The position numbers were made by a program, and so were the translations under genes. Positions 1,276-25,482 of a stretch of DNA of 64,000 bases are shown here, piece by piece (within the stretch, counting starts at the first letter, position 1; each line of letters starts with the position of its first letter). The notes beneath the pieces were generated by a model. It did not search any database. It worked only from the letters and a program-made list of their open reading frames with translations, and was not told the DNA's origin. This stretch comes from an uncultured Candidatus Saccharibacteria bacterium (GTDB lineage Bacteria; Patescibacteriota; Minisyncoccia; Phycocordibacterales; UBA12088): the NCBI GenBank assembly GCA_964411375.1, contig CAYPKR010000001.1:358629-422628 (forward strand), read 5' to 3'.

Positions 1276-1665
1276 ATGAAACTCCGCATCCGTTTTGCCT
1301 TCAAGAAAATATTTGTTTTCGGAGCACTCTTCCTTTCGAGTCCAATTTTGGTGCTTGCACAAGCGCGGACTGGCGCAAGTTTTCCAAATCCAATTGCTGC
1401 GCCTGACCTTACGACATTTCTCACGCTGGTTCTAAATGCGGTCACGCTCATTGTCTTTCCGTTCATCGTGCTTTTTATTGTCTATGCGGGATTCAAGATG
1501 ATTGCAGCGCGAGGAAACCCAGGAGAAATTTCCAAGGCAAAAGAGCAGATAATATACGCAATAATTGGTGCGCTTATCATTCTTGGTGCGCAAGCAATTT
1601 CCTTCGCGATCAAGGGCACCGTCGATACTATTCGTTGCGGTGGTGTTGGCTGTAATCCGCTCTAA
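1276..1665 (+). CDS. small two-TM VirB2/TrbC-like (CPR 'T4SS pilin-like') protein, array member 1
   Basis: 129 aa with a signal peptide, a hydrophobic helix, a short charged loop (ARGNPGEISKAKEQ) and a second helix. The architecture matches the N-terminal domain of ORFs 19076 and 20679. Confidence 0.5.
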   Translation: MKLRIRFAFKKIFVFGALFLSSPILVLAQARTGASFPNPIAAPDLTTFLTLVLNAVTLIVFPFIVLFIVYAGFKMIAARGNPGEISKAKEQIIYAIIGALIILGAQAISFAIKGTVDTIRCGGVGCNPL

Positions 1666-1670
1666 TCCAC

Positions 1671-2009
1671 ATGAATTCCAAGGTCAGATTGTTTCGAAAC
1701 AATATTATTGCGGTAGCAGTCGGTATTGGTACATTTCTTGCCCCACATATTGTCCGCGCCGATCCTCCGACACTTCGCGACATCATCGTCAAAATAACAT
1801 CGCTCATTCAGCTCGCGTCTATTTTGCTCGGTGGGCTCTTGGTTGTGGCGTTTGTGTGGGGTATCGCACGGTTTATCCTGAATGTGGGCGGATCTGACAA
1901 GCGCGCTGCCGATAAGCAATACTTATTTTGGGTAGTTGTCGCGATGTTCGTAATGTTTGGTGTCGTTGGACTCGTCACAATACTTCAAAACACGCTCCTC
2001 AATGGCTAA
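1671..2009 (+). CDS. small two-TM pilin-like protein, array member 2
   Basis: 112 aa with the same signal + TM-loop-TM layout. The 6-nt gap to the upstream gene suggests an operon. Confidence 0.5.
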   Translation: MNSKVRLFRNNIIAVAVGIGTFLAPHIVRADPPTLRDIIVKITSLIQLASILLGGLLVVAFVWGIARFILNVGGSDKRAADKQYLFWVVVAMFVMFGVVGLVTILQNTLLNG

Positions 2010-2412
2010 ACAATTCATACAAAAAGGCGGACTGGCTCTGATGTTGTGCATCAGCATTGTTCTTCCGAGTGTTGCGTACGGCGAAGCCACCATCGATGAT
2101 TTGTTGGTACATTCAATTGCTTTCGTAAACGGATATCTTATTTATGTGGCCTTTGCCGCGACATTCCTATTTTTCCTATACGGCATCGCACGGTACATTC
2201 TTGCTTCTGGAGATGATGCAAAAGTGGCGGGACGCCAGCTTATGATCTGGGGTTCGGTCGCTATGTTTATTGTTTCCTCAATTTGGGGATTGGTTGCGAT
2301 TATAAACCGCACGCTCGGACTTCCTGGCCAGCCAGAGGGAACGATTCGTGCGACCTGTGTTCATTTATTTGGTGAAGCACCTACCGAAAGCAATTGTGCC
2401 GATACCAACTAG
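2002..2412 (+). CDS. small two-TM pilin-like protein, array member 3
   Basis: The start is taken at the internal ATG 2002 (MAKQFIQKGG...), giving an 8-nt overlap with the upstream stop (aATGGCTAAa). It has two TM helices flanking a DDAKVAGRQLMIWGS loop. Confidence 0.45.
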   Translation: MAKQFIQKGGLALMLCISIVLPSVAYGEATIDDLLVHSIAFVNGYLIYVAFAATFLFFLYGIARYILASGDDAKVAGRQLMIWGSVAMFIVSSIWGLVAIINRTLGLPGQPEGTIRATCVHLFGEAPTESNCADTN

Positions 2413-2473
2413 CATTTGTGGAGAAGTCACTCGACAAATAATCGATGTACCGTAGCATGTAAGTATTATTTTC

Positions 2474-2842
2474 ATGAATCGACACGCTGTATCTCGAATC
2501 ACTGCAACCGTCGCATCGGTTTTTGTTTTCGCTACTCCGCTTATTACGCTTGCGCAAGGAAGCGATCTTTTTACTGTTGGTCAAGATAGCGCTACCGCAC
2601 TTCTTAATATTCTACAAACGCTGACGCAGGTTGCATTTCTCGCAATAATGGTCGCGTTCTTCTGGGGTCTCGCTAAATACATTTGGGGCGGCGCCGAGGA
2701 TAAAGAGCGCGGAAAAAATCTAATGGTGTGGGGAACGCTTGCCATTTTCGTCGCTGCGTCTATCTGGGGAATTGTGACGGTACTCAAAATCACTTTTGGT
2801 GTTGGTAATGAACAAACAGGCTTTGTACCGCTAGTCATTTAA
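2474..2842 (+). CDS. small two-TM pilin-like protein, array member 4
   Basis: 122 aa with a signal peptide and the conserved motif FFWGLAKYIWGGAEDKERGKNLMVWG...ASIWGIV shared with members 5 and 6. Confidence 0.55.
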   Translation: MNRHAVSRITATVASVFVFATPLITLAQGSDLFTVGQDSATALLNILQTLTQVAFLAIMVAFFWGLAKYIWGGAEDKERGKNLMVWGTLAIFVAASIWGIVTVLKITFGVGNEQTGFVPLVI

Positions 2843-2857
2843 CAGTAATAAATCAGT

Positions 2858-3223
2858 ATGACGACATCTAAAATACGATCAGCACTTATGCACGGCGTTG
2901 TCGCCGTAGGTTCTCTTGTTCCAGTTTTGGTTTCCGCACAAGCAAATGCACTCGACACAGTCGACCAGAGTACGATAACCCTTCTCACGATCGTCTCGCG
3001 CCTCTCCCTTATCGCATTCATGGCGATTCTCCTCTTTTTCTTCTGGGCAATAGCTAAATACATTTGGGGTGGCGCTGAGGATAAGGAAGAAACGAAGAAT
3101 CTCCTTATCTGGGCGGTGGTCGCACTGTTTGTCGCCGCTTCAATCTGGGGAATCGTTCAAGTGCTTAAAACAACCTTCGGGGTTGGCGACGAGACATCAG
3201 TCAATATTCCCCGCGCATTCTAA
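2858..3223 (+). CDS. small two-TM pilin-like protein, array member 5
   Basis: 121 aa carrying the motif FFWAIAKYIWGGAEDKEETKNLLIWA...ASIWGIV; a close paralog of 2474 and 3319. Confidence 0.55.
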   Translation: MTTSKIRSALMHGVVAVGSLVPVLVSAQANALDTVDQSTITLLTIVSRLSLIAFMAILLFFFWAIAKYIWGGAEDKEETKNLLIWAVVALFVAASIWGIVQVLKTTFGVGDETSVNIPRAF

Positions 3224-3318
3224 GCTTTATTTGTCCACACCGGATCCTTGCATGAAGGGCGGGAGGCGGTATTCTAAAGGGGAATTAGTCGCAATAGTTT
3301 ATTAATATTTTTGTATTC

Positions 3319-3672
3319 ATGAAAAAACTTATTTCGCTTTCCGCTCTCGGTATGTTTGCTCCGGCGCTTGCATTTGCACAGCTCACTGGTGCAGGTAATA
3401 CCATCACCGCAGCAGTAACAACGTTGGGAAATGTTGTTAACGCCCTTATTCCAATCGCGTTTGCTGCCGCACTCCTCTTCTTCTTCTGGGGTCTCGCACA
3501 GTACATCTGGGGTGGTGCCGAAGAGAAGGAAAAGGGTCGCAACCTCATGATCTGGGGCGTTGTTGCGCTCTTCATCATGGCGTCGATCTGGGGAATCGTT
3601 GGTGTGCTTCGAACAACGTTTGGTATTACTGCAAACCCATCGACTGCACAGGTTCCAGGCGTAACTCCGTAA
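3319..3672 (+). CDS. small two-TM pilin-like protein, array member 6
   Basis: 117 aa carrying the motif FFFWGLAQYIWGGAEEKEKGRNLMIWG...ASIWGIV. Confidence 0.55.
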   Translation: MKKLISLSALGMFAPALAFAQLTGAGNTITAAVTTLGNVVNALIPIAFAAALLFFFWGLAQYIWGGAEEKEKGRNLMIWGVVALFIMASIWGIVGVLRTTFGITANPSTAQVPGVTP

Positions 3673-3691
3673 TCTCTCCATTTTCCCTCAT

Positions 3692-3970
3692 ATGGGATTT
3701 CCTACTTCCGTATCGGAATTTATGAATCGGGTTGATGCCGCAATCATCAACCCGATTTTGGCATTACTCTTTACTGCAGGCATGCTGTACTTCCTCTGGG
3801 GCGGATTCCAGTTTATTGTCGGCGCAGCAGAACCATCAAAGCGCATTGAAGGGAAGCAGCACATGCTATGGGGTGTTATTGGTATGTTCGTAATGTTTTC
3901 GGTCTACGTCATTCTTCGAGTCGGACTTACGACATTTGACATAACGCCAGCACCAGGGTTGCCGCTCTAA
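3692..3970 (+). CDS. small two-TM pilin-like protein, array member 7 (no signal peptide)
   Basis: 92 aa with a diverged version of the same core (LWGGFQFIVGAAEPSKRIEGKQHMLWG). Confidence 0.45.
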   Translation: MGFPTSVSEFMNRVDAAIINPILALLFTAGMLYFLWGGFQFIVGAAEPSKRIEGKQHMLWGVIGMFVMFSVYVILRVGLTTFDITPAPGLPL

Positions 3971-7988: not shown

Positions 7989-8032
7989 GGATTATTGGCA
8001 TACAGAGCTTTTTTAGGTAAGATTCAAAACAT

Positions 8033-8105
8033 CCGCCCATAGCTCAGTTGGTAGAGCGACTCCCTCTTAAGGAGACGGTCCAAGGTTCGAGTCCTTGTGG
8101 GCGGA
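8033..8105 (+). tRNA. tRNA-Lys (anticodon CTT)
   Basis: Hand-folded cloverleaf: acceptor CCGCCCA/TGGGCGG, D-stem GCTC/GAGC, anticodon loop CTCTTAA, T-arm CAAGG-TTCGAGT-CCTTG, discriminator A. No CCA is encoded. Confidence 0.8.
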
Positions 8106-8150
8106 CAAGCGTTAAGAAATCCTGATCTACGTCAGGATTTTAGCTTGTCC
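8103..8150. terminator. nested perfect hairpin overlapping the tRNA-Lys 3' end
   Basis: Outer stem GGACAAGC/GCTTGTCC and inner stem AAATCCTGA-TCTACG-TCAGGATTT. The left arm begins inside the tRNA acceptor 3' strand. Confidence 0.55.
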
Positions 8151-8260
8151 GAGCCGGAGCAATGTTGCGTAGCAACTGCGAGGCGGGATCGCGAGTGCTT
8201 AGCATTTTGTGCGTAGCTACAAAATACTTAGCAACTCGTGATGACTTTTTAAAAGACGGC

Positions 8261-8384
8261 AATCGGTCACCGATAATTTTGCGTAGCAAAATTTCGTCGA
8301 CCCCAGCTCGCCGTCGCTTCGCGACATGGCTGCGCTTTTCGATTCCCAACACACTCAAAGCAGCTTGAGTGCTCTCTCGGCACT
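8261..8384 (+). ncRNA. structured non-coding element, copy A (44-nt conserved module, GCGTAGC-loop hairpin, GTCGC hairpin, inverted pseudo-copy of the tRNA-Leu 3' half)
   Basis: 8261-8304 is identical to 9116-9159. Hairpin AATTTT-GCGTAGC-AAAATT; hairpin GTCGC-TTC-GCGAC. TTTTCGATTCCCAAC is a T-loop copy, CACTCAA-AGCAGC-TTGAGTG is an inserted hairpin, and CTCTCGGCAC is a plus-orientation copy of the tRNA-Leu 3' acceptor. Confidence 0.5.
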
Positions 8385-8409
8385 CTTTACTCAACTTCGT
8401 TTCGTTCGG

Positions 8410-8496
8410 TGCCGAGAGTGGGAATCGAACCCACACGAGCGTTTATAGCCCTCGGGATTTTAAGTCCCGTATGTCTACCAATTCCATCATCTCGGC
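8410..8496 (-). tRNA. tRNA-Leu (anticodon TAA), long variable arm
   Basis: The reverse complement folds with acceptor GCCGAGA/TCTCGGC, anticodon stem CGGGA/TCCCG with loop CTTAAAA, a long variable arm, T-arm GTGGG-TTCGATT-CCCAC and discriminator A. Confidence 0.8.
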
Positions 8497-8503
8497 GTAC
8501 TCG

Positions 8504-9097
8504 CTATTGTAAATTAGTACCCCAATATTGTCTCGATGCAAGTATTGCAATAAATCCGCACCCTATGAATGAATAGATAGGATAGGCTAAGTTATAGGCT
8601 GCGTACGAGGAAACTGCAAGAATCCCGCAGAGTGCGGAAAGGGTGATGAGTGCCCAAGGTAGCAACGCCTCCGACTCGGGCATTCGGTATGTTTTAGTGA
8701 TCGTTGGGATGGTAAAAAATGCATCGCCGATGATTGAAATATAAATTGCAAGTACTGGGTCGTTGGTATACACCCATGCGGCTATTGCCATGATTCCTAT
8801 TAGGAACGCAAGTGTATCAATCCAGTGGTACGCCGTAAGATATTTTTTGTAATAAACCGAGACGCCGAGTGTTAGTAGGCAATTAAAGGTGAATATGGTT
8901 GGAATGACTATCGACCAATCTGCGCCTTTTGAAAACTGCGCAAGAGCCGGAATTGCAGAAAGGAGTGACCAACCTATTTGTGAATAAATATGTGGACGAG
9001 TAGTGCCGTATATAACGCTCCGCAAATAGGGAACCGCCGAAGAAAGCGCAATGCACGTTGCAGCTATTCCGAGTAGTGCGTGGGAATTGATAGGCAT
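8504..9097 (-). CDS. polytopic membrane protein (hypothetical, about 6 TM)
   Basis: 197 aa and hydrophobic throughout. It sits between tRNA-Leu and the second copy of the 44-nt module. Confidence 0.5.
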   Translation of the reverse strand: MPINSHALLGIAATCIALSSAVPYLRSVIYGTTRPHIYSQIGWSLLSAIPALAQFSKGADWSIVIPTIFTFNCLLTLGVSVYYKKYLTAYHWIDTLAFLIGIMAIAAWVYTNDPVLAIYISIIGDAFFTIPTITKTYRMPESEALLPWALITLSALCGILAVSSYAAYNLAYPIYSFIGCGFIAILASRQYWGTNLQ

Positions 9098-9115
9098 TGG
9101 TTTCTTAATTTTAGG

Positions 9116-9320
9116 AATCGGTCACCGATAATTTTGCGTAGCAAAATTTCGTCGACCCCGCCTTACTCATCCATAAGCCAGTCCACGCAGGATCGGTCCT
9201 TACAGGACCAGTATACCGTGCGGATTTTTTCTTCGCCTTCGGCTCGAAAAAAGTCTCGCACGGTTTTCGATTCCCGCACGAACGCTCCCCCGGAGCGTTC
9301 TCGGGCCCCAACTTCGTTGG
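9116..9320 (+). ncRNA. structured non-coding element, copy B (44-nt module + variable hairpins + T-loop copy of tRNA-Cys + CCC-triloop hairpin)
   Basis: 9116-9159 is identical to 8261-8304. There is a GGTCC-TTACA-GGACC hairpin; TTTTCGATTCCCGC is a plus-orientation copy of the tRNA-Cys T-loop/T-stem; and there is a GAACGCTCC-CCC-GGAGCGTTC hairpin. Confidence 0.5.
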
Positions 9321-9392
9321 AGTCCACGGCGGGAATCGAACCCGCGTATAAGGGTTTTGCAGACCCATGCCTTACCACTTGGCCACGTGGAC
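9321..9392 (-). tRNA. tRNA-Cys (anticodon GCA)
   Basis: The reverse complement folds with acceptor GTCCACG/CGTGGAC, anticodon stem TGGGT/ACCCT (a 27-43 U-U pair) with loop CTGCAAA, T-arm GCGGG-TTCGATT-CCCGC and discriminator T. Confidence 0.75.
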
Positions 9393-9397
9393 AATTT

Positions 9398-9715
9398 TTA
9401 TTGCAGTGCCTCGGCGCTGGTATCCGTCATCGGAATATCCGGCGCAATGACAAAATCGATGAAGGGAAGTCCGCGGAGCGCGCTCTTCTCCTTTAAATAT
9501 TCACGAAATTCACTTCGCTTCCGCTTCAAAAAATCAAGCGCTGCAGCTTCGTGATCTTTTGGATACACCGAGCAAAAAATCTTTGCCTGCTTTAAATCTT
9601 CCGAAAGATACACGCCGGTTACGGTTATGAGCGACTGACGATTGGATTCTATATTCACAAATGTCGCAGCAAGATGCTGAAGCTCTTCCCTCGTGCGTGC
9701 AGTACTGTCCTCCAT
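9398..9715 (-). CDS. rbfA: ribosome-binding factor A
   Basis: 105 aa carrying the RbfA core ITVTGVYLSEDLKQAKIFCSVY. It lies immediately downstream of infB, the conserved infB-rbfA order. Confidence 0.75.
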   Translation of the reverse strand: MEDSTARTREELQHLAATFVNIESNRQSLITVTGVYLSEDLKQAKIFCSVYPKDHEAAALDFLKRKRSEFREYLKEKSALRGLPFIDFVIAPDIPMTDTSAEALQ

Positions 9716-14564: not shown

Positions 14565-17270
14565 TTGTCTAAATCTACTCACATGACTCCATTCAATAAT
14601 TTCACAACCAAGGCGAAGGAAGCGGTACGAAAAGCCCACGAACTTGCTATTGAACGCGGACAAAATCACGTCAATCCGCTCCATCTTCTAACCGCACTCA
14701 TCCTGCAGGAAGAAAATACTGTCTTTTCTATACTCGAGCGACTCGACGTCGATACGGTACTTTTGACTGACACACTCCTTGAAGCACTTGAAGCGCCGGA
14801 AGGATCATCAGTGCTCTCACCTTCATATCAGCTCTACCTCACGCCAGAACTTGCACACGTACTTGAAAATTCTGCACGCATTGCGTCAGCACTTGGCGAT
14901 CAGTTTGTTTCTACCGAACATCTTTTCATCGCTATTCTTGATAATCCGGGCCCAGCGCGCGAAGTAATCGCTCGTTTCCGATTTGATCGGAATTCTGTCA
15001 TCAGAATTATTCAGGAACTCAAGGCAAACAATGTTACTGATGTCGCACAACCAAAGAAATTTAAAGCCCTCGCAAAATTTACGCGTAATCTAACGGCGCT
15101 TGCCGCTGACAACAAACTCGATCCAGTCATCGGTCGTGATGGTGAAATCACCCGCGTCATTCAGATCCTTTCTCGTCGAACCAAAAATAATCCGATTTTG
15201 ATCGGTGAGGCGGGTGTTGGAAAAACCGCAATCGCCGAAGGTCTCGCAAATCGTATCGCATCAGGTGACGCACCAGAATCGCTTCGCGGAAAGGAACTTG
15301 TTGCGCTCGACTTAGGGCTTCTCATTGCGGGTACGAAATATCGCGGCGAATTTGAAGAGCGTCTCAAAAACATTATGAAAGAAGTTGAGAAGGCGGATGG
15401 GAAAGTCATCCTCTTTATCGACGAGCTTCATACGATCGTTGGTGCGGGTGCAGCAGATGGCGCGATGGATGCGTCAAACATGCTGAAGCCAGCGCTTGCG
15501 CGCGGAGAACTTCGGGTTATCGGTGCAACGACGCTTGCTGAATATCAAAAGCACATCGAAAAAGATGCAGCGCTCACGCGTCGCTTCCAGCCGGTCATTG
15601 TAAATGAACCGTCGATCGAAGATGCGGTCGCGATTCTTCGTGGACTTCGTGAAAAGTACGAAGTCTTCCATGGCGTTCGAATTACCGATGAAGCAATCGT
15701 TGCGGCAGTTAATCTTTCTTCCCGCTATATCACTGATCGATTCTTGCCGGACAAGGCGATCGATTTGATTGACGAATCTGCGTCAGCACTCCGTATCTCG
15801 CTTGAAAATAAACCGGCGGCTCTCGAAGATGCACACCGCAAAATAATGCGCCTCGAAGTCGAGAAGGAAGCGCTTTCAAAAGACTTGGAAATTCACGAAG
15901 GTCGTGATACCAAGGCGCGCATCAAACAAATTGAAAAAGAAATCGCCGATCTTCGCGAGAAGACTGCCGACCTCGAACTTCGATGGAGCAACGAAAAGGA
16001 AGTGCTCTCTGATATCAAGGCGCTCAAAAAACAACTTGAAACGCTTCGAAATGAAGCAGAAAACGCGGAAGCAGTTGCTGATCTTTCTCGTGCTGCCGAA
16101 GTACGCTATGGAAAAATTCCGGCACTTGAGCGCGATCTCGATCAGAAGGTCAAAAAATTAAAGCGATTCCAGCAGACGCGCCGTGTGCTGAAAGAAGAGA
16201 TTATGGAAGAGGATATTGCAGCAGTTGTTGCGCGCTGGACGGGTGTTCCGGTTTCTCGAATGCTCGAAGAAGAAGCACAGAAGCTTTCTCGTATGGAAGA
16301 TTCGCTGAAAGATCGAATCGTGGGACAAGATGATGCAATTACGAAGGTTGCCGCTGCGGTGAAGCGATCTCGTGCAGGCATTGCTGATCCAAATCGTCCA
16401 ATCGGTTCGTTCCTCTTCCTCGGTCCAACGGGAGTTGGTAAAACGGAACTCTCAAAGGCGCTCGCTGAATTCATGTTTGATGACGAGAAATCGCTCATTC
16501 GAGTCGACATGTCCGAATACATGGAACGCCACGCAGTGTCCAAGCTCATCGGTGCGCCTCCAGGATATGTTGGATTTGAAGAAGGCGGATCTTTGACCGA
16601 ACTCGTTCGTCATCGTCCGTACTCGGTTTTGCTCTTCGACGAAATTGAAAAAGCGCATCCCGAAGTCTTCAACATTCTGCTTCAAGTTCTCGACAGCGGT
16701 CATTTGACCGATTCAAAGGGACGCAAAGTGAACTTCAAAAATACAATCATCATTTTGACTTCGAACATTGGTTCGCAATACATCGATCGCATGACGCAGA
16801 TCGGATTCTCGAAAGATAATGGTAACGAGGCGGTGCAGTACGAAATGACAAAGGACAAGGTGATGGATTCGCTCAAAGAATTCTTCCGCCCTGAATTCCT
16901 CAATCGTCTTGATGAAATCATCATCTTCAATATGCTCTCCGAGGACGCGATTAAGAATATTGTCGCGATGCAGGTGAAGTTGGTCGCTGATCGCTTGCTC
17001 CAAAAGGGAATCACGCTCACGCTCACTGATGCCGTCTATGCGCATCTCGCAAAAACTGGATACGATCCGCACTACGGTGCCCGTCCACTGAAGCGCTTGA
17101 TTCAAAACAAGATTTTGACCCCGGTCGCCTCGATGATGATCTCCGAAGGACTGCTTGGGGGTGGCTCGGTTGTCGTCGACATGAAGGGGACGGAATTCGC
17201 ATTCGATGTGAAGAAAAAGAAGGGAACCGTTCGTCGGGCTTCAAAGAAAGAGGAGAAGGTGTTGGTATAG
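14565..17270 (+). CDS. clpB: ATP-dependent chaperone ClpB
   Basis: 901 aa with Clp-N repeats, D1 Walker [16 protein letters not shown], a long coiled-coil M-domain, D2 Walker [16 protein letters not shown], Walker [11 protein letters not shown] and sensor GARPLKR. Confidence 0.85.
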
Positions 17271-17280
17271 TAATTTAATC

Positions 17281-17326
17281 GAGCGGAGAATCCGGTGCGA
17301 AGCGGTTCGCACCGGATTCTCCGCTC
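17281..17326. terminator. 21-bp perfect palindrome (clpB terminator)
   Basis: GAGCGGAGAATCCGGTGCGAA-GCG-GTTCGCACCGGATTCTCCGCTC. Confidence 0.6.
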
Positions 17327-17343
17327 GATTGTTGTATGAAAAC

Positions 17344-17371
17344 AAAAAATCCCTGTGAGGGGATTTTTTGG
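17344..17371. repeat. AAAAAATCCC-N6-GGGATTTTTT palindrome (family member 1)
   Basis: Perfect 10-bp stem. Same-family hairpins lie at 18243-18272 and 22570-22617. Confidence 0.6.
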
Positions 17372-17382
17372 TAAAGTTCGAA

Positions 17383-18066
17383 TTAATTTTTGGAAGATTC
17401 GGGTTTATTCGTTTTCTTCTTTTGATCAGCCATTGCCCTTACATTCTCCAGACGTTGCTGTCGTTCATAACGTGTCACATACCAATCCTCAACTAAATTC
17501 TCTATGAGACCTATAAGTAATTGCGCCTCGTTTGGATCAATTTCGATAATTACATTTACGTCCTTTTCCATGTGTGCACCGATATTCCCTACGGAACGTA
17601 CAGCGTCAATAGCGTCCCAAGTATCAATATTCACCTGATCTTTTATGGCTTCAATCTCATTTTTTAACATTCCTGATTCTACTTTCCAGAAATCTCGAAT
17701 CATTCCTTGCAGAGCACGCCTAGCAAGGGTAGCCGAAGCTTTCGGACTTAGATCTCTAATTCTGCAGGCTTCGTAGTAATCCTCTTTGATAGCAACTGGT
17801 ATGTATTCTGGCAATACTTTGGCCGAAGACTCTGGAAGCAGTTGCCAGGTTTGAGTAGTAGGCCCCTCTTCCCCCTGCACTAATCTTGTGAGTCTCGTTT
17901 TTAAATAAAGCTCGTGGCACATAGGATTGGGACATCGTACAGCAAAAAAACCAACGCCCACAGCACCCTTTTTCGTAGCATTGATATAGACACTTCTCCA
18001 GTGATTAAAGCTGTCATTTCCCACAATGGTGGAGTGGTGACCACAGTATGGACATGTGTAATTCAT
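17383..18066 (-). CDS. Zn-ribbon + DUF4145 domain protein (defence-island-associated family)
   Basis: N-terminal CPYCGHH...CPNPMC ribbon and C-terminal ...AVRSVGNIGAHMEKDVNVIIEIDPNEAQLLIGLIENLVEDWYV, matching the R-x2-GN-x-GAH core of DUF4145. The start is taken at ATG 18066 (GAGGG RBS), because the upstream GTG-extended frame to 18207 overlaps the tRNA-Tyr-associated hairpin region. Confidence 0.5.
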   Translation of the reverse strand: MNYTCPYCGHHSTIVGNDSFNHWRSVYINATKKGAVGVGFFAVRCPNPMCHELYLKTRLTRLVQGEEGPTTQTWQLLPESSAKVLPEYIPVAIKEDYYEACRIRDLSPKASATLARRALQGMIRDFWKVESGMLKNEIEAIKDQVNIDTWDAIDAVRSVGNIGAHMEKDVNVIIEIDPNEAQLLIGLIENLVEDWYVTRYERQQRLENVRAMADQKKKTNKPESSKN

Positions 18067-18191
18067 AATACCCTCAATATATTCCTCTCTTCTTTGTATG
18101 TCCAAAATATTTTGAGAGGGAGTTTCGACCCCTACAGGGTCAGTCCAGGTTGTATGATCTTTTCTTCCTTCGGTCGAAAAGCTCGACAACC

Positions 18192-18242
18192 TTTTCGAAT
18201 CCCTCACGAAAGTTCCCCCGGAGCTTTCTCTGTGCCACCAAA
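18192..18242 (+). ncRNA. inverted pseudo-copy of the tRNA-Tyr 3' half with a CCC-triloop hairpin insert
   Basis: TTCGAATCCCTC is a plus-orientation copy of the tRNA-Tyr T-loop/T-stem, followed by the GAAAGTTCC-CCC-GGAGCTTTC hairpin and GTGCCACCA, which resembles the acceptor 3'-CCA. Confidence 0.45.
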
Positions 18243-18272
18243 CAAAAAATCCCTTTCAAGGGATTTTTTGTT
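18243..18272. repeat. CAAACAAAAAATCCC-TTTCAA-GGGATTTTTTGTTTG perfect palindrome abutting the tRNA-Tyr 3' CCA
   Basis: 15-bp perfect stem ending 1 nt before the tRNA-Tyr 3' end. Confidence 0.6.
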
Positions 18273-18358
18273 TGGTGCGCCGGGAGGGATTCGAACCCCC
18301 GTAGGCATAAGCCGCTTGGTTTACAGCCAAGTGCGATTGACCACTCCGCCACCGACGC
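18273..18358 (-). tRNA. tRNA-Tyr (anticodon GTA), long variable arm, CCA encoded
   Basis: The reverse complement folds with acceptor GCGTCGG/CCGGCGC (a G-U pair), anticodon stem CTTGG/CCAAG with loop CTGTAAA, a long variable arm, T-arm GGGGG-TTCGAAT-CCCTC and ACCA. Confidence 0.75.
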
Positions 18359-18408
18359 GTTCCCACAAATTATCACGCTCCCTAGAATCTGGGAAGGAGT
18401 GGTGAATA

Positions 18409-18924
18409 TTACTTACAAATCGACGTTGAAGAGGCTATATGTCCCACGGTCGAACTTGAGGTTCCTACAATGCAGATGATACCTCTGCCAAATGCCCCGC
18501 TGCCCACTTCGAGAAATGCAAGAACAGAATAATCATCTGTCTTCGGAGAACTGCCTCCGCCGCTTGAAGAAATGCCATATTGGCACACGCCTGTTGAAGA
18601 TAGAGTACAAACTGTTGTTCCGTTCGGATCCTTAAATTTGGAGAGTTGGGTCATATCAATTCCATTTATTGTTCCCGTGCACGAATTTATATTCGAGCTT
18701 GCCGCGGTACAGCCTTGAAGCGCTGGACCCGTAGCTCCGGTTGCGAGATTGAGTACGCGCCCAATCTGTTCAAGATCAGAAATACGTTGGGCATCACGCG
18801 CCTTGGTCCTGGCGCTATTCAAGGATGCAAGAACAACTGATGAGAGAATGCCGATGATTGCGATGACCACGAGAAGTTCGATAAGCGTGAATCCATAACT
18901 CCTCCTTATTTGGGGGCTGCTCAT
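18409..18924 (-). CDS. type IV pilin / pseudopilin (class III signal peptide)
   Basis: N-terminus MSSPQIRRSYG|FTLIELLVVIAIIGIL with the prepilin-peptidase site G-F and a Glu at +5. The remainder is Ser/Thr/Gly-rich with 6 Cys. Confidence 0.7.
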   Translation of the reverse strand: MSSPQIRRSYGFTLIELLVVIAIIGILSSVVLASLNSARTKARDAQRISDLEQIGRVLNLATGATGPALQGCTAASSNINSCTGTINGIDMTQLSKFKDPNGTTVCTLSSTGVCQYGISSSGGGSSPKTDDYSVLAFLEVGSGAFGRGIICIVGTSSSTVGHIASSTSICK

Positions 18925-19075
18925 ACTGATGTAGTTCAAATTAATTACAACAAATTTATCATAGCATCCTTCAAGGAAGCGGCGCAGGGTTCCGAGGCCG
19001 AGGTGGGGAAATCTTTCCCCGCGTTCTGTGTATAAAAACAGCCATATCGTCGCATTTTATCGTTATACTAATTTC

Positions 19076-20053
19076 ATGAAGTATCTTGCATGGCTCCTTG
19101 CCTTGCTCTCGTTTTCGATTATCCCGACGGCCGTGTTTGCCGCTGGTGGACTTGTACCGTGCGATGGACCGGAGTGTGATATCTGTTCGTTTGTTGCGCT
19201 CGGACAAAAAATCCTCAATTTCCTCGTCTATGCTTCGGTCCTTATTGCGACCATCATGTTCACGTATGCAGGGATTGAAATGCTCATTCATTCCGACAAT
19301 TCCGGAGCGATCTCGCAAGCGCGACATACGTTTATGAATGTACTGATTGGACTCGTCGCAATTCTCGCCGCGTGGCTCATCATCGATACAGTTATGCGCG
19401 TTCTCTTTACCTACAACAATGGTTTTGAAGGAACGGCAGGATACGGAAAGCCTTGGGAGGATATTTTGTGCGCGTATCAATCGGAACCGCCTCCACCCAC
19501 TACCGGAGGCGGTGGAACGACTGCTACCGCAGGAGGGGGTAGCGCGACCGCGGGAGGTGGAGGTGGATCATGCACAGTACAAACGGATGGTGCGTGTAGT
19601 GTGAGTGCGCTGACACCAGTCTTCGATACCGTAGCAAGCCAAGCATCGCAAATCTGCAATGCAGAAAGCGGCGGAAATCCGAACAGTGAAAGTGCTGTGG
19701 ATCGCATTCTCGCTGGCGGACAGGCATTTTCAGTCGGGCTATTTCAAATAAACATGACGCAACATGATCTCACTGCTCCGGCATGCAAGGCGCTAAACGG
19801 CGGTAATCCAATGGATTGCTCCCAATTAGATACTTCTGTAATAGGTCCACCGCTCACTCCACCTGCATTTACCGGCTCAAATCGAAATGCCCGCATTACT
19901 AATACTGCTTTGTACAATGCATGTAGTGCAGCGCTCAAAAATCCTGCGTGCGCAATACAGACTGCCAAACAAATTTACATTGCTGGCGGAGGTCCTTCGC
20001 GCCCAAATTCATGGGCACAGTGGTCGACTGCTGCAACCTGTCATCTTCCGTAA
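19076..20053 (+). CDS. fusion protein: N-terminal VirB2/TrbC-like two-TM pilin domain, Gly/Thr linker, C-terminal lytic-transglycosylase/lysozyme-like domain
   Basis: The start is taken at MKYLAWLL. It has a signal peptide, then PCDGPECDICS, two TM helices (the same layout as array gene 1276) and a GGGTTATAGGG linker. The C-terminal CNAESGGNPNSES...GLFQIN matches the E-S...GL(F/M)QI signature of SLT/Rpf-type transglycosylases. Confidence 0.5.
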   Translation: MKYLAWLLALLSFSIIPTAVFAAGGLVPCDGPECDICSFVALGQKILNFLVYASVLIATIMFTYAGIEMLIHSDNSGAISQARHTFMNVLIGLVAILAAWLIIDTVMRVLFTYNNGFEGTAGYGKPWEDILCAYQSEPPPPTTGGGGTTATAGGGSATAGGGGGSCTVQTDGACSVSALTPVFDTVASQASQICNAESGGNPNSESAVDRILAGGQAFSVGLFQINMTQHDLTAPACKALNGGNPMDCSQLDTSVIGPPLTPPAFTGSNRNARITNTALYNACSAALKNPACAIQTAKQIYIAGGGPSRPNSWAQWSTAATCHLP

Positions 20054-20084
20054 TTTTTGCTCGTAGCATAGTATTAGTACAACC

Positions 20085-20666
20085 ATGAAAATATTCCTCA
20101 AATTTTTTCTCGGCATAGGGGTGATCGGGCTCATTGGAGTTTCCATTCTCTATTTCTTTTTTACGAAACAGCAACCAATCGAGGAGCCAACAACTGGAGA
20201 GGCAACGATAAACGGATTTCCAACAAGTGGCGGTGGAACAATTATCGGAGGAGGATCGGCGGGGAGCACAACAACCACTGGAGAGATTCCTCCCGGCAAG
20301 CGCGCTATTCAGACCCGTGGATCTGACAAGATTGTGGTAAATGATTTCCTCGCAAGTTCAACACCGCATCAGGACGAATATATCGGCGAATATTATTTAC
20401 TGAATGAATCGACGACGACACCGCCATTCCAAATTATTTACACGGCGAAAGATCAGTTTTTCCAGATTTCGATTGAAAAAGCTCCGCTCGGAATTGTCCG
20501 AAAAGATGCAGAAACATTTCTTCTTACCTCGCTCGGTATAAACCAACAGACGGCGTGCTTACTGAAACATTCAGTCGGAGTTCCTAATTGGCTCGATACG
20601 CATTATTCGGGAAAGAATGTGGAATTTAGTTTTTGCCCAGGTACTGTATTGCTTCCAGAAATTTAA
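20085..20666 (+). CDS. membrane-anchored hypothetical protein with Gly/Thr-rich linker
   Basis: 193 aa with an N-terminal TM helix, a GGGTIIGGGSAGSTTTTG linker and a beta-rich C-terminus. Confidence 0.4.
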   Translation: MKIFLKFFLGIGVIGLIGVSILYFFFTKQQPIEEPTTGEATINGFPTSGGGTIIGGGSAGSTTTTGEIPPGKRAIQTRGSDKIVVNDFLASSTPHQDEYIGEYYLLNESTTTPPFQIIYTAKDQFFQISIEKAPLGIVRKDAETFLLTSLGINQQTACLLKHSVGVPNWLDTHYSGKNVEFSFCPGTVLLPEI

Positions 20667-20678
20667 TTTATCCTCGAT

Positions 20679-21617
20679 ATGAAATCAGTAATCCGATTTT
20701 TTACAGTGACGGTAGTTGCATTTATGCCGTTTGTCGTTTTGTATGCCGCGGGTGGACTCGTACCGTGCGACGGACCAGAGTGTGATCTATGTTCACTTGT
20801 CGCGCTCGCTCAGAAAATAATGAATTTCCTGATTTTCATTGCGGTCATTATTGCGACCATCATGTTTGTCTACGCGGGATTCACGATGCTCGTGAATGCA
20901 GACAATGCAGGAAAGCGAAGTGAGGGGCGGAAAATTTTTGTGAATGTACTGATTGGACTCGTCGCAATTCTCGCCGCGTGGCTCATCATCGATACGGTCA
21001 TGAAAGTTCTCTTCGTCAATTCTGAACTCAACAACGATCGGGTCGGGCGCCCGTGGCAGGATATTTTGTGCGAGTTTCAATCCGTAAAGCCGCCACCCGA
21101 TGGGGGTGGAACTGCAACTGCAGGAACAGCTACCGCAGGCACCGCGACTGCTGGCGGTACCGCAACAGCAGGAGGCGGAACCGCAGGTGGTAGTGGTAGC
21201 GGAGCTCCATTGCATCAGGATGCGGCGTTCGCTCTTCTTAATGCAAGTAACATCGCAATACATAGCTCAGGTGATTGTACCGATCCGAATATTTCCACCT
21301 GTACATCTCTTGAAGGAATGCGGCAGGGAACTGTTGCCGGCATCATCAATCTATCGAATAGCGTCTGTGGCTCGGATGGGGGTTGTGTCGTAGTGACCGG
21401 AGGTACGGAAGTAGGGCATGAACCAGGAGTCTGTTCTCATTCAAATGGATGCAAGGCAGACGTTGCATTTAATCCTGCGGTCGATGCATATATCACGACC
21501 TTTGTTCGAATAGGCGACCGGACTGACGGTGCGGCGCAGTATCAGGATAGGTGTGGAAATATCTATGCCCGAGAGTCAGACCATTGGGACATCTCTTTCC
21601 CGAACGCATGCTCCTAA
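20679..21617 (+). CDS. fusion protein: N-terminal pilin-like two-TM domain (paralog of 19076) + (GTATA)n linker + Cys-rich C-terminal domain of unknown function
   Basis: The N-terminal 130 aa is about 75% identical to 19076, including a 55-nt identical DNA tract (20941-20995 = 19335-19389). The C-terminal domain is unrelated and has 12 Cys. Confidence 0.5.
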   Translation: MKSVIRFFTVTVVAFMPFVVLYAAGGLVPCDGPECDLCSLVALAQKIMNFLIFIAVIIATIMFVYAGFTMLVNADNAGKRSEGRKIFVNVLIGLVAILAAWLIIDTVMKVLFVNSELNNDRVGRPWQDILCEFQSVKPPPDGGGTATAGTATAGTATAGGTATAGGGTAGGSGSGAPLHQDAAFALLNASNIAIHSSGDCTDPNISTCTSLEGMRQGTVAGIINLSNSVCGSDGGCVVVTGGTEVGHEPGVCSHSNGCKADVAFNPAVDAYITTFVRIGDRTDGAAQYQDRCGNIYARESDHWDISFPNACS

Positions 21618-21629
21618 TAGGAATCGACC

Positions 21630-21658
21630 TTTGACCGCAGGAAACCCTCGTGCTATAG
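21630..21658 (+). promoter_or_regulatory. sigma-70-like promoter (TTGACC-17-TATAGT) giving a leaderless rpmG mRNA
   Basis: Consensus -35, 17-nt spacer and consensus -10. The ATG at 21668 lies 9 nt after the -10. Confidence 0.5.
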
Positions 21659-21667
21659 TCTCATCCT

Positions 21668-21823
21668 ATGTCACAGGATAACTTGGTAAAAATCAAAAAT
21701 AGCCAGACGGGAGAAATGTATTTCACCCGTAAAAATCGTCGCAAAGTCGAGAAAAAGCTCGACCTTAAGAAGTACTCTCCAAAGCTTCGCAAACACGTTT
21801 CTTTCAAGGAAGTAAAAAAATAA
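21668..21823 (+). CDS. rpmG: 50S ribosomal protein L33
   Basis: 51 aa, [51 protein letters not shown]. It fits the L33 pattern (...Y.T.KN.R...KLELKK..P..RKHV..KE.K). It is absent from the ORF track because it is under 60 aa. Confidence 0.75.
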
Positions 21824-21824
21824 T

Positions 21825-21868
21825 CAAAACAACAAACCCCGCCAATTGGCGGGGTTTGTTGTTTTGAT
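21825..21868 (+). terminator. rho-independent terminator
   Basis: AAAACAACAAACCCCGCC-AATT-GGCGGGGTTTGTTGTTTT followed by a T-rich tract. Confidence 0.65.
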
Positions 21869-21912
21869 CACTGCGCCGTACACTTACGGTATTATTCTTT
21901 TACAATTCCGAC

Positions 21913-22203
21913 ATGAATATGGAGGGACAAAATCAGGGAGCGGAAGCAACTCCTGATTTTACAAAAGCGGATACGTGGGAAGATGTCATGACTGTTTTAG
22001 ACACCGTCGAGGGTGTGCAGGGATCCAAGCAGTTCTACCCAGTAGATATGATTCACGAGCAGATGAGTACATACGCTGCTCGACTCGCAGAAGGAAATGA
22101 AGATTTGGCGGCAGATGAACTTGCCCAAATAACTGGAACGGGAGGTCTTCGAGGTGCAGTAGAGCGGGCAGTACAGAAAAGAATTGAAAACGCAAAAAAG
22201 TAA
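21913..22203 (+). CDS. hypothetical acidic protein
   Basis: 96 aa followed by the hairpin AAACCGCC-TTTCGA-GGCGTTT. Confidence 0.35.
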   Translation: MNMEGQNQGAEATPDFTKADTWEDVMTVLDTVEGVQGSKQFYPVDMIHEQMSTYAARLAEGNEDLAADELAQITGTGGLRGAVERAVQKRIENAKK

Positions 22204-22245
22204 CCAAAACCGCCTTTCGAGGCGTTTACCTTCTACTACTCAACT

Positions 22246-22365
22246 TTATCGTCGCTTCTTACTTGCTCGCTTTGTCAACATTTCTCTCTTCGCCGCAAGT
22301 CGCTTTTTTGTTTTCCGTGAGCGAGATTTTCTAGCTCGCGCCGGTCCTGTGTCTCTTTTTGCCAT
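22246..22365 (-). CDS. possible very basic 39-aa protein (ribosomal-protein-like composition)
   Basis: MAKRDTGPARARKSRSRKTKKRLAAKREMLTKRASKKRR; 17 of 39 residues are K/R. The ATG is at 22365 and a terminator hairpin follows. Confidence 0.25.
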   Translation of the reverse strand: MAKRDTGPARARKSRSRKTKKRLAAKREMLTKRASKKRR

Positions 22366-22432
22366 ATGACTCTAGTATATCGTACCGAAAGGGTAAGAGG
22401 AAACATTTACATGTTGGCGGACTATGAGGAAC

Positions 22433-22560
22433 TCGGTCACGGATAATTGTTGCTACGCACAATTTCCGCGACCCGTGAAAAGGTGTCCGTACACCTTTTC
22501 ACCACCGTCGCTATGCGACATGGCTCCGTCTTTCGATTCTGAAGGAGGTCTGCGCAGGCA
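22433..22560 (+). ncRNA. structured non-coding element, copy C (diverged homolog of copies A/B, with T-loop copy of tRNA-Trp)
   Basis: CGGTCACGGATAATTGTTGCTACGCACAATTTCCGCGACCCG aligns to the 44-nt module; the loop GCGTAGC becomes GCTACGC while the stem is kept. It has an inserted 12-bp hairpin, a GTCGC-TAT-GCGAC hairpin conserved with copy A, TTTCGATTCTGAA (a tRNA-Trp T-loop copy) and a GTCTGCG-CAGG-CAGAC hairpin. Confidence 0.5.
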
Positions 22561-22569
22561 GACTTCTGT

Positions 22570-22617
22570 GGCCCGCAAATGTAAAATCCCTCAAAAGGGA
22601 TTTTACATTTGCGGGCC
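22570..22617. repeat. 21-bp perfect palindrome GGCCCGCAAATGTAAAATCCC-TCAAAA-GGGATTTTACATTTGCGGGCC overlapping the tRNA-Trp 3' end
   Basis: The right arm includes the tRNA-Trp acceptor 3' strand (GGGCCC). Confidence 0.6.
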
Positions 22618-22682
22618 CACTCAGAATCGAACTGAGAACGTCGGTTTTGGAGACCGAAATTTTACCGTTAAACTATAGGCCC
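22612..22682 (-). tRNA. tRNA-Trp (anticodon CCA)
   Basis: The reverse complement folds with acceptor GGGCCTA/TGGGCCC (a U-G pair), anticodon stem TCGGT/ACCGA with loop CTCCAAA, T-arm CTCAG-TTCGATT-CTGAG and discriminator G. Confidence 0.75.
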
Positions 22683-22736
22683 AATCGTGACTGTGTAGCC
22701 ATTCTTCCAGAGAATCGGATAAAACTCAAATGGAAA

Positions 22737-25246: not shown

Positions 25247-25329
25247 TGCCCGAGGTGGGAATCGAACCCACACTTCTTGCGAAACACGATTTTGAGTCGT
25301 GCGCGTCTACCAATTCCGCCACTCGGGCA
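25247..25329 (-). tRNA. tRNA-Leu (anticodon CAA), long variable arm
   Basis: The reverse complement folds with acceptor GCCCGAG/CTCGGGC, anticodon stem CACGA/TCGTG with loop CTCAAAA, a long variable arm, T-arm GTGGG-TTCGATT-CCCAC and discriminator A. Confidence 0.8.
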
Positions 25330-25482
25330 TTCCCTAGATTTTGGGTCGTGGAGAAAATGTCTCCCAGACATTTTCTCCTACCAATTCCGCCATCCCGGCA
25401 ATTGGCTTGAGTGTAGCAGATTCACATATTGCCGCAATTTTTTCACATTTTTTGCCTGCAAATGGCGTGGTACAATCACCGA

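Follow-up and report, generated by a model that had tools for sequence, protein, structure and literature searches.

The stretch of 64,000 nucleotides analysed here (the window) belongs to contig CAYPKR010000001.1 of an uncultured Candidatus Saccharibacteria bacterium. It carries seven tRNA genes, on which ARAGORN and Rfam agree, and 40 of its open reading frames (ORFs) are of housekeeping character (IF-2, RbfA, ClpB, MiaA, TopA, DprA, RelA, ParB, SerRS, and others). An earlier sequence-only reading, which counted eight tRNAs, had pointed to perfect palindromes at the 3′ ends of several of these genes. In each palindrome the 3′ end of a tRNA adjoins its own last 20 nucleotides (T54–N73) copied in inverted orientation, and this inverted copy is carried by a noncoding element of 120–200 bp that is positioned tail-to-tail with the tRNA. 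The positions of the tRNA genes and of the elements (E1 to E4) are listed in Table 1.

Table 1. tRNA genes, elements, and associated features of the window
Feature	Position	Strand	Details
tRNA-Lys(CTT)	8033–8105	+	ARAGORN; Rfam, 67.4 bits; terminator only, no family element
Palindrome at tRNA-Lys	8102–8151	+	9-bp arms, 8102–8110 and 8143–8151, CGGACAAGC/GCTTGTCCG
Outer truncated type II copy	8176–8254	+	degenerate antisense tRNA-Leu(TAA) tail remnant CTGCGAGGCGGGATCG, 8176–8191, and long hairpin
E1, type II, at tRNA-Leu(TAA)	8255–8408	+	remnant, 8255–8265; 5′ hairpin module, 8261–8304; T copy (inverted orientation) TTCGATTCCCAA, 8338–8349; hairpin C, 8352–8371; acceptor copy CTCTCGGCAC, 8374–8383 (left arm of the palindrome); spacer without T-tract, 8384–8408
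tRNA-Leu(TAA)	8410–8496	−	ARAGORN, Rfam
Partial type II 5′ module	9116–9159	+	44/44 identical to 8261–8304
E2, type I, at tRNA-Cys	9180–9317	+	remnant AGTCCACGCAGGATCGG, 9180–9196; hairpin A (TTACA loop), 9195–9209; hairpin B; T copy TTCGATTCCCGC, 9266–9277, 12/12; hairpin C GAACGCTCC-CCC-GGAGCGTTC, 9280–9300; acceptor copy diverged, 9303–9312
tRNA-Cys	9318–9392	−	ARAGORN, Rfam; CCA encoded
Bidirectional terminator	17343–17370		CAAAAAATCCC-TGTGAG-GGGATTTTTTG; 90% identical to 18240–18270; terminator-like on both strands (scanner)
E4, type I, at tRNA-Tyr	18114–18272	+	remnant, 18114–18128; hairpin A, 18127–18141; hairpin B; T copy TTCGAATCCCTC, 18194–18205, 12/12; hairpin C, 18208–18228; acceptor copy partial; spacer terminator-type
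tRNA-Tyr	18273–18358	−	ARAGORN, Rfam; CCA encoded
E3, type II, at tRNA-Trp	22413–22611	+	remnant GTTGGCGGACTATGAGGAACTCG, 22413–22435, resembling the tRNA-Trp tail of relatives; hairpins, 22435–22473, 22475–22502, 22507–22519; T copy TTCGATTCTGAA, 22532–22543; hairpin C, 22544–22567; acceptor copy with terminator-type spacer
tRNA-Trp	22612–22682	−	ARAGORN, Rfam
tRNA-Leu(CAA)		−	ARAGORN, Rfam
tRNA-Gln		−	ARAGORN, Rfam

The element behind the tRNA genes of the window

Perfect inverted repeats are present, as previously noted and with small corrections of their coordinates, at the 3′ ends of tRNA-Leu(TAA), tRNA-Trp, tRNA-Tyr and, marginally, tRNA-Lys. At tRNA-Leu(TAA), arms of 10 bp (CTCTCGGCAC, 8374–8383, and GTGCCGAGAG, 8409–8418) flank a loop of 25 nt; the palindrome given before as 8375–8418 is thus real, although its start was one base off and its loop was put at 24 nt. 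The right arm is the acceptor 3′ strand of the tRNA, which contributes nine nucleotides, and there is no T-tract on either strand. The arms at tRNA-Trp comprise 22 bp (22570–22591 and 22596–22617), six nucleotides of which come from the tRNA, and those at tRNA-Tyr comprise 18 bp (CACCAAACAAAAAATCCC, 18236–18253 and 18260–18277), with the tRNA part limited to C72, A73, and the encoded CCA. At tRNA-Lys the overlap with the tRNA is marginal, consisting only of CGGA (four nucleotides of the arm), and the arms enclose the core of an intrinsic terminator (AAATCCTGA..TCAGGATTTT, 8117–8141). In turn, tRNA-Cys has a small CCAAC/GTTGG hairpin that takes in its CCA.

When 3,000 anchor sites placed randomly in the window were treated with the same anchoring, perfect inverted repeats of at least 8 bp were found at 1.5% of them, and of at least 10 bp at 0.5%. 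Since the random rate for at least 8 bp is 1.5%, palindromes at three to four of seven tRNAs are not a matter of chance; binomial arithmetic gives about 1e-4 for three of seven tRNAs reaching at least 9 bp. The common core AAATCCC-N6-GGGATTT, also pointed out in the sequence-only reading, occurs exactly three times in the window (17347, 18247, and 22584), with an expectation of 0 from 100 shuffles.

The palindromes reported at first are only the acceptor-proximal part of a larger inverted repeat. Read on the strand opposite the tRNA, the element begins with an antisense duplicate of T54–N73, which is often decayed, and continues with hairpin A, bearing an invariant TTAC loop, the linker AGTACA, and the long hairpin B. 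These are followed by a copy of tRNA positions 54–65, by hairpin C positioned between AC and TC, by a copy of positions 66–73 with trailer, by an apex spacer, and finally by the real tRNA. The tRNA-proximal module starts with TTCGANTCC and the T-stem 3′ strand of the neighbour, leads through AC, the perfect hairpin C, and TC to the copied acceptor 3′ strand and first trailer bases of the same neighbour, and ends in a short spacer next to the tRNA itself. This module is thus ordered as an inverted T54–N73 that a hairpin opens between positions 65 and 66, where the inverted tail copy is usually split.

Four main copies are located on the + strand of the window, opposite the minus-strand genes of tRNA-Leu(TAA), tRNA-Cys, tRNA-Tyr, and tRNA-Trp, and a fifth copy is truncated. 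Their bodies are of two types, in which the inner hairpins differ and the ends are alike. Type I (Cys, Tyr) combines a TTACA-looped hairpin A with the AGTACA linker and the long hairpin B, whereas type II (Leu-TAA, Trp) starts with GGAATCGGTCAC, which is followed by a hairpin and then by CGCGACCCC. This type II module of 44 nt is 100% identical at 8261 and 9116 and is thereby common to E1 and E2. Judged from its sequence, the truncated copy outside E1 may be the older member of a stack of two elements.

Only the tRNAs reach threshold when the whole window is searched at gathering thresholds against Rfam (version 15), which has tmRNA, Y RNA, T-box, group I/II introns, and OMEGA/HEARO among its families, and at E values up to 10 the elements in the regions 8000–9450 and 17200–22800 give only sub-threshold matches at chance level. 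No description of the element was found in the literature covered by our full-text searches, and the family appears to be undescribed. Several RNA classes were considered and set aside because no model supports them and their topology or size does not fit: tmRNA-like 5′ motifs (UUCGAC), T-box, H/ACA-type bipartite guides, split or permuted tRNAs, pairings of the group I P1/internal guide sequence or group II exon-binding/intron-binding sequence kind, retrons, and bridge RNAs.

Copies, arms, and insertion footprints in other Patescibacteria

Pattern scans, which favour intact bodies, revealed more than 130 further copies in genomes of Patescibacteria and in metagenomes, at tRNAs of at least 30 anticodons. 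A scan with the hairpin C pattern over one genome per species gave 20 loci, every one of them an element of this family, and 19 of the 20, with enough flank, have either a convergent tRNA 3′ end 23–55 nt away or the next element of an array. Those stem positions that the hairpin C pattern leaves unconstrained are complementary in every locus. All of these loci are in metagenome-assembled genomes of Patescibacteria, with the exception of one 10-kb contig binned as Acidimicrobiales (JBLIMJ010000027.1). Given that both its tRNA-Gln and its element conform to the family type, this is probably a mis-binned contig of Patescibacteria.

A scan of metagenomes with the type I pattern gave at least 117 unique copies. 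Among the matches listed, 74 copies have a neighbouring tRNA called by ARAGORN, covering at least 30 anticodons, and it is to these that the counts out of 74 given below refer. Most of the remaining listed copies are at contig ends, in arrays, or next to tRNA genes that ARAGORN missed, and a few have downstream only a degenerate remnant of a tRNA tail. Every copy found by the pattern scans that has sufficient sequence adjoins a tRNA or a tRNA tail remnant, and viral contigs gave no pattern matches. A covariance model trained on 109 type I copies from other genomes recovers E4, which was outside the training set, with 58.5 bits (E 5e-17), and E2 with 102 bits. For the type II element E1, the 3′ module reaches 16.8 bits (E 0.003), its acceptor copy matching at 8/8 and its T copy at 11/12 positions, with a gap of 25.

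At four metagenome loci, the elements are positioned tail-to-tail with tRNA genes missed by ARAGORN, in which an insert separates the antisense ...TTAC from GGACTATATCATC. These genes are apparently interrupted by introns, which would fit the self-splicing group I introns reported at positions 35/36 and other sites of tRNA anticodon loops in Patescibacteria (bioRxiv 10.1101/2025.07.03.662931), a report that does not mention elements in the T-loop or downstream. The element itself is not a group I intron, as it sits behind an intact tRNA, comprises 120–200 nt, and has no group I match.

The arms of the element follow the tRNA next to it. At the tRNA-specific positions of the T arm (59 and 63–65), 3.45 of 4 residues match, compared to 1.44 when the neighbours are permuted (maximum 1.81 of 2000 permutations). 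The acceptor copy matches at 6.69 of 8 positions (5.09 permuted), and the whole inverted copy, with a gap allowed for hairpin C, at 18.4 of 20 (15.0 permuted, maximum 15.6). In most copies 7–8 of 8 residues of the acceptor copy and 11–12 of 12 of the T copy are matched, and the inverted copy is perfect in 26 of the 74. Bodies within one genome may be 0.89–0.91 identical at Trp, Ser, and Lys, or at Tyr and Arg, and yet have wholly different arms, each matched to its own tRNA, which argues that the arms were re-templated rather than slowly mutated. A donor search with fresh copies found no other sampled tRNA that clearly beats the neighbour as a match to the inverted arm.

The tRNA tail is often repeated, as a direct copy, beyond the distal end of the element, with a mean identity of 14.2/20 as compared to 10.4 under permutation. 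It is a perfect 20-nt direct repeat in 16 of the 74 copies, starting exactly at T54 in 15 of the 16. This perfect repeat begins just after the element end (...CTGTAAGN) and extends 1–4 nt past N73, C74 always being included, and the distance from repeat to repeat is 136–202 nt. To judge from these junctions, the direct repeat looks like a target duplication of 20–21 bp; it is not an attP/attB identity block, since one body lineage serves many tRNAs. Both ends of the element lie in helices formed between flank and interior: at hairpin A, a TTC of the flank is paired with a GAA inside the element, and on the other side T54–N73 pairs with the internal antisense arm. Stacked arrays, with new copies between older copies and the tRNA, are present at seven further loci and at 8176–8408 of the window.

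The comparison of orthologous tRNA loci, named in the sequence-only reading as a check capable of refuting it, shows that relatives do carry the palindromes, though with turnover. By its MiaA, the window falls within Patescibacteria (Paceibacteria/Parcubacteria-like). In the syntenic genome GCA_964567265.1 (L002, MiaA 71% identical), the element is present behind both tRNA-Tyr and tRNA-Trp; its palindrome at tRNA-Tyr comprises 25 bp and spans the entire acceptor strand, and the T copy shifts together with the tRNA, from TTCGATTCTGA(G/A) in the window to TTCGAGTCCTG(C/A) in L002. The site behind tRNA-Trp is empty in L004 (MiaA 80% identical), with a gene for a small basic protein following the tRNA directly, while L145 (81%) has a type II copy with an inverted T copy matching its own T arm, L002 has a type I copy, and a relative with 70% identity has two stacked copies. 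Beyond E3, the window contains a decayed tRNA-Trp tail of the type found in relatives and then a flank homologous to the trailer of L004. The alignment of this remnant and flank to the tail and trailer of L004 therefore makes the element an insertion relative to the empty allele.

Some further features of these loci were noted. In the tRNA-Trp T-stem, three base pairs and one loop base differ among relatives with 80% MiaA identity (CTCAG/CTGAG as against CGAGG/CCTCG), and across the window, L004, L145, and L002 the inverted copy of the element shifts in parallel with the T-stem; the partner in the palindrome may speed the evolution of the T arm. Directly downstream of tRNA-Trp there is a conserved, tiny, very basic ORF (MAKRDTGPARARKSRSRKTKKRLAAKREMLTKRASKKRR; 22250–22366 on the minus strand of the window, 2911–3036 in L004) without a Pfam assignment. 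In L002 (10906–12074, compared to 21600–22740 of the window), tRNA-Trp, its promoter-like GAAGAATGGCT box, and the element are inverted relative to MiaA and L33, and the same holds for tRNA-Tyr and its element with respect to ClpB and the pilin genes. Paralogues coding for small membrane or pilin-like proteins form tandem arrays at 1276–3970 and 19028–21617 of the window (repeat families D1, D3, D4, and D8; in relatives, T4SS_pilin/TrbC-like), and another ClpB-like paralogue, the second, is located at 37712–40189.

Direct repeats at tRNA tails could also be the scars of tyrosine integrases, in which case they would represent attL and attR, and the elements would be miniature derivatives of genomic islands, similar to cis-mobilizable elements (CIMEs). 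Direct repeats at tRNA 3′ ends are reportedly, following Williams in 2002, a hallmark of integrase-mediated islands, and tandem accretion at tRNA genes is typical of such islands, including CIMEs and integrative and conjugative elements. The element shares with them the tRNA 3′ direct repeat that starts in the T-loop, the intact tRNA, and the tandem accretion. However, attP carries a single fixed tRNA tail, whereas here near-identical bodies are found at different tRNAs of one genome (Trp/Ser/Lys or Tyr/Arg) with repeats and arms of their own tRNAs, which led us to reject a CIME with one fixed attP core per lineage. Additionally, one body family serves at least 30 tRNAs, the unit of 136–202 bp (~150 bp) is very small, att sites contain nothing that corresponds to the extra inverted copy, and neither an integrase among the window ORFs nor a match in viral contigs was found. 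Integrase scars are thus a very unlikely explanation.

It is also highly improbable that the palindromes are sporadic, independent products of template switching at tRNA genes, without any element family. Stems formed only by Watson–Crick pairs, junction overlaps of microhomology size (1–4 nt after N73), and the perfect hairpins known from template-switch mutations (PMC8794818) would all agree with such an origin. It is contradicted by more than 130 copies, found in many genomes, that share a homologous body and its invariant motifs, and by the recovery of an untrained copy by the covariance model (E 5e-17); all that is left to it is the role of keeping up the arms. The suggestion in the sequence-only reading of a footprint left by template-switch or hairpin-mediated duplication came nearer the mark than its other proposal, as part of the tRNA 3′ end recurs, inverted, in the outer arm, which follows the neighbouring tRNA; what it missed are the reach to the T-loop past the hairpin, the conserved element of 120–200 bp with its far direct duplicate, and the extent of the family across Patescibacteria.

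A mirror-image phenomenon was observed at tRNA 5′ ends, where, for 16 of 178 tRNAs, the first 22 nt recur as a direct copy (at least 17/22) no more than 200 nt upstream. Such a copy in the window belongs to tRNA-Leu(CAA) on the minus strand (25307–25400), with the copy at 25378–25400 and the real 5′ end at 25307–25329 identical at 21 of 23 positions, and with a perfect hairpin resembling hairpin C (GGAGAAAATGTCTCCCAGACATTTTCTCC, 25350–25378) between them. Copies of 5′ ends are also present at 12 of the other loci, including the contig binned as Acidimicrobiales. In the tRNA-Gln cases an inverted copy of the D arm lies beside the tRNA, and the tRNA-Val and tRNA-Ile cases share a non-random variant, TAGCTGTTTTGGT.

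Terminator cores and the pairing of the stems

The cores at tRNA-Tyr (18240–18270), tRNA-Trp (22577–22607), and tRNA-Lys (8117–8141) consist of an A-tract, a short GC stem, and a T-tract, and the AAATCCC...GGGATTT cores look, by their sequence, like bidirectional intrinsic terminators carried in the apex spacer. Such a core is present in the spacer of 37 of the 74 copies; in place of it the other half have, like Leu-TAA and Cys, an apex mini-hairpin with a C(GNA)G or GNRA cap. A terminator scanner calls the related core at 17343–17370 but passes over those at Tyr and Trp, where the T-tract has become part of the lengthened stem.

The latter core also closes the gene of a DUF4145-domain protein (17383–18207), which, together with E4, is bracketed by the terminators at 17340–17370 and 18240–18270. 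This gene has no counterpart in L002, which has the element, and it looks like a small cassette inserted behind tRNA-Tyr. Just before the terminator at 17343–17370, and directly 3′ of the ClpB stop codon, there is another perfect palindrome of 22 bp (CGAGCGGAGAATCCGGTGCGAA-gcgg-TTCGCACCGGATTCTCCGCTCG, 17280–17327).

The principal proposal of the sequence-only reading was that the palindromes are intrinsic terminators beginning inside the tRNA 3′ end; taken as the whole explanation, they would be plain terminators with stems that happen to reach the acceptor strand. The A-tract, GC stem, and T-tract of the Tyr, Trp, and Lys cores, the call of the core at 17343–17370 as terminator-like on both strands, and the presence of a core in half of the copies are in accord with this proposal. 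At tRNA-Leu(TAA), however, a 25-nt loop is found and no T-tract, and in each palindrome the core does not include the part extending into the tRNA. The complementarity passes the inserted hairpin to the T-loop, with a total of 20 nt outside the terminator proper, and the direct duplicate of the tail, the conserved body of 100 nt, and the arrays are left over. As half of the copies are without a core, the terminator reading holds for a sub-module only; as a complete explanation it is contradicted and retains very little probability.

The stems of the element differ in their pairing from those of the adjacent tRNAs. Hairpin C includes 951 Watson–Crick pairs, no G·U, and one A·C, and among ~545 pairs of stem A there is a single U·G. 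The proportion of G·U is 2.4–3.8% in hairpin B and 10.6% in the adjacent tRNAs, and a bulged U is an equally good reading of the commonest 'G·U', that at the hairpin B base. At the same time, stem A and the base of hairpin B covary massively, one pair of stem A, for example, being CG in 57, GC in 28, AU in 18, and UA in 6 copies, with none broken. The near absence of wobble pairs points to a constraint at the level of DNA or of both strands, or to templated repair, rather than to an RNA of one strand. It is more informative than tests of the strand, which conflict: in 16 of 23 bodies the tRNA-sense strand has the more favourable RNAfold energy (for hairpin B summed, −2127 compared to −1811 kcal/mol), whereas the wobble pairs in hairpin C of the window's own copies favour the opposite strand.

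These observations bear on the possibility that the element is a host-functional RNA, either a 3′ extension of the pre-tRNA in which the antisense part pairs with T54–N73 and controls folding, 3′ processing, or stability, or a convergent small RNA, with selection keeping the match of the arms. Invariant loop and linker motifs, three strongly covarying stems, and more than 100 copies in diverse lineages speak for such a module, and its abundance in streamlined genomes and arms that follow the tRNA even among close relatives agree with it. On the tRNA-sense strand, the antisense arm is tRNA-like in topology, with its 5′ strand broken where the D and anticodon arms would sit, the apex loops are of the C(GNA)G or GNRA type, and hairpin B is more stable by ~2.9 kcal/mol per copy. 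Nevertheless, the stems are nearly free of G·U (0/951 in hairpin C), and a bidirectional terminator, present between tRNA and element in half of the copies, would end either transcript before the long pairing. The element is missing at tRNA-Trp in one relative and has the other body type in others, arrays and decaying copies are seen, there is no Rfam family, and the arms are imperfect in fresh copies. With this evidence we consider a host-functional RNA unlikely.

The identity of the inverted copy and that of the remnant are anticorrelated among the listed copies (Spearman −0.47, p 2.5e-5), and a perfect inverted arm is found in none of 16 fresh copies and in about half of the old ones. In the simplest reading, the arm would be converted towards the constrained tRNA after insertion. 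Template switching is a known source of perfect stems and of compensatory changes of several bases at a time (PMC8794818).

Origin of the element and its relation to known systems

Taken together, with a probability that we put at about 0.6, the palindromes are joints of a tRNA tail with the inverted partial copy on a small, noncoding, palindromic element, which is insertion-like, has its arm re-templated, and is widespread in Patescibacteria. Such an element would be, or would recently have been, a non-autonomous insertion element whose landing site is in or behind the segment from the T-loop to the 3′ end, the tRNA being spared through duplication of the target site. Intrastrand template switching, acting as quasipalindrome correction, would then re-template the inverted arm from the adjacent tRNA, which is under selective constraint, and this may be why the palindromes stay perfect over time. 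The hairpins would act at the level of DNA or equally on both strands, and AAATCCC-N6-GGGATTT in the spacer would, after insertion, place a terminator directly behind the tRNA 3′ end.

Three candidates for what moves the element can be proposed. The movement could be due to a nuclease or integrase that acts in trans and nicks at a spacing of 20 bp, it could rely on the internal antisense arm used in the manner of a guide, or it could proceed by transposase-free copy-paste with two template switches, at the universal T-loop homology and at a microhomology of 1–4 nt after N73, a size that the observed junction overlaps match. We can speculate further about self-retargeting mobile DNA of a new class, in which the internal antisense copy of T54–N73 would serve as a single-stranded DNA or RNA guide that pairs with the tail of the tRNA gene. 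The ends of the duplex would set both nick sites, and for that reason the duplication would be exactly 20–21 bp, and the guide would be rewritten from each new target. This guide version is tentative, a possibility rather than an expectation; in a weaker form it would be a previously undescribed, cis-acting pre-tRNA module specific to Patescibacteria.

Several observations weigh against an insertion element. There is no transposase, integrase, reverse transcriptase, or Cas1 among these 40 ORFs of the window and none was linked to the element elsewhere, so that mobility is deduced from footprints. A target duplication of 20 bp is unusually long for bacterial transposons. The TTAC and AGTACA motifs and the loop of hairpin C are kept across deep lineages of Patescibacteria, which, like the abundance in streamlined genomes, would also fit a function beneficial to the host. 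The anticorrelation between remnant and inverted arm could mean two structural subfamilies instead of ageing, and the sampling is skewed to intact bodies. How hairpin C survives the re-templating of the arm is not accounted for, and the strand tests disagree, apex loops and hairpin B energies favouring the tRNA-sense strand and the hairpin C wobbles of the window the opposite one.

Comparison with known small repeats of bacteria leads us to file the element as a kind of small non-autonomous repeat with an unusually long, structure-defined target duplication and target-templated arms. As in MITEs (transposable elements of the miniature inverted-repeat kind), the copies are multiple, short, and noncoding, related copies are found at unrelated loci, and duplication accompanies presence/absence polymorphism (L004 empty, window and L145 filled); the fixed terminal inverted repeats of a known transposase family are absent, as the arms vary with the neighbouring tRNA. 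With MITEs, repetitive extragenic palindromes (REPs), bacterial interspersed mosaic elements, and REPINs, the element also shares an intergenic, hairpin-rich nature with stems perfect at the level of DNA, a frequent position at gene 3′ ends, a capacity for termination, and the need for a trans factor if mobile at all. Unlike in these families, it is always at a tRNA tail, its arms copy the neighbouring tRNA instead of fixed sequences, its apparent duplication is 20–21 bp compared to 2–10 bp, and a cognate transposase or RAYT is not known. It is also larger and more modular than REP/REPIN sequences, which are imperfect palindromes of ~20–40 nt with a conserved 5′ tetranucleotide and are associated with RAYTs. 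Rho-independent terminators resemble the apex of the Tyr, Trp, and Lys cases and of about half of the family, where an A-tract, a GC hairpin, and a T-tract lie behind the tRNA, but they do not have a complementarity reaching 20 nt into the tRNA (T54–N73), interrupted by a hairpin and contained within an element of 120–200 bp, many copies of which are without a T-tract.

The subterminal perfect hairpins, and ends set by pairing between interior and flank, recall elements derived from IS200/IS605, which move as single-stranded DNA ('peel and paste'). The corresponding pairings would here be those of the internal GAA with the flanking T54-T55-C56 at hairpin A and of the antisense arm with the tRNA tail. 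The TTAC motif recalls the target of IS608, although it is placed in a hairpin loop and not in the flank. IS200/IS605 elements insert 3′ of a fixed tetra- or pentanucleotide, with a TnpA (Y1 HUH) supplied in the genome, make no target duplication, and use a guide of 4 nt, whereas the element has a duplication of 20–21 bp and an arm of 20 nt. No Y1_Tnp domain, TnpA, or TnpB was detected among the window ORFs scanned, and with the duplication present, an IS200/IS605-derived element was rejected.

Casposons, and the repeat duplication of CRISPR, both driven by Cas1, share with the element a long exact duplication and an addition on the leader side that yields arrays, and casposons also share integration at tRNA 3′ ends. 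The element differs in being noncoding, without Cas1 or PolB, in a duplication of 20–21 instead of 14–15 bp, and in the inverted copy of the target. Template-switch mutation at quasipalindromes (PMC8794818) similarly yields perfect Watson–Crick stems, jumps of several bases, and conversion of one arm to its partner; it is, however, a mutational process and not an element, and leaves the conserved body and its spread over tRNAs unaccounted for. The primer-binding sites of long terminal repeat (LTR) retroelements are also complementary to the ~18–20 nt at the tRNA 3′ terminus, ending in the T-loop, but in the element the complement is in cis behind the tRNA gene and split by a hairpin, and the host is a bacterium, with no reverse transcriptase or LTRs.

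If the interpretation as an insertion element is true, streamlined Patescibacteria carry a very successful noncoding element, located at about half of the tRNA genes of the window, which leaves the tRNAs unbroken. Its choice of target and the rewriting of its arms would be a new mode for bacterial repeats, and it would be a natural case of template switching that shapes long perfect palindromes against a constrained gene. The guide version, if true, would represent a natural, programmable, protein-light mechanism of insertion that could drive unusually fast co-evolution of the T arm. With its palindromes and 20-nt repeats, the element is a trap for the annotation of tRNAs and pseudogenes and for assembly, while its empty and filled alleles and stacked arrays are markers for population studies at strain level. 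The element may also explain the rapid compensatory change observed in the T arms of tRNAs.

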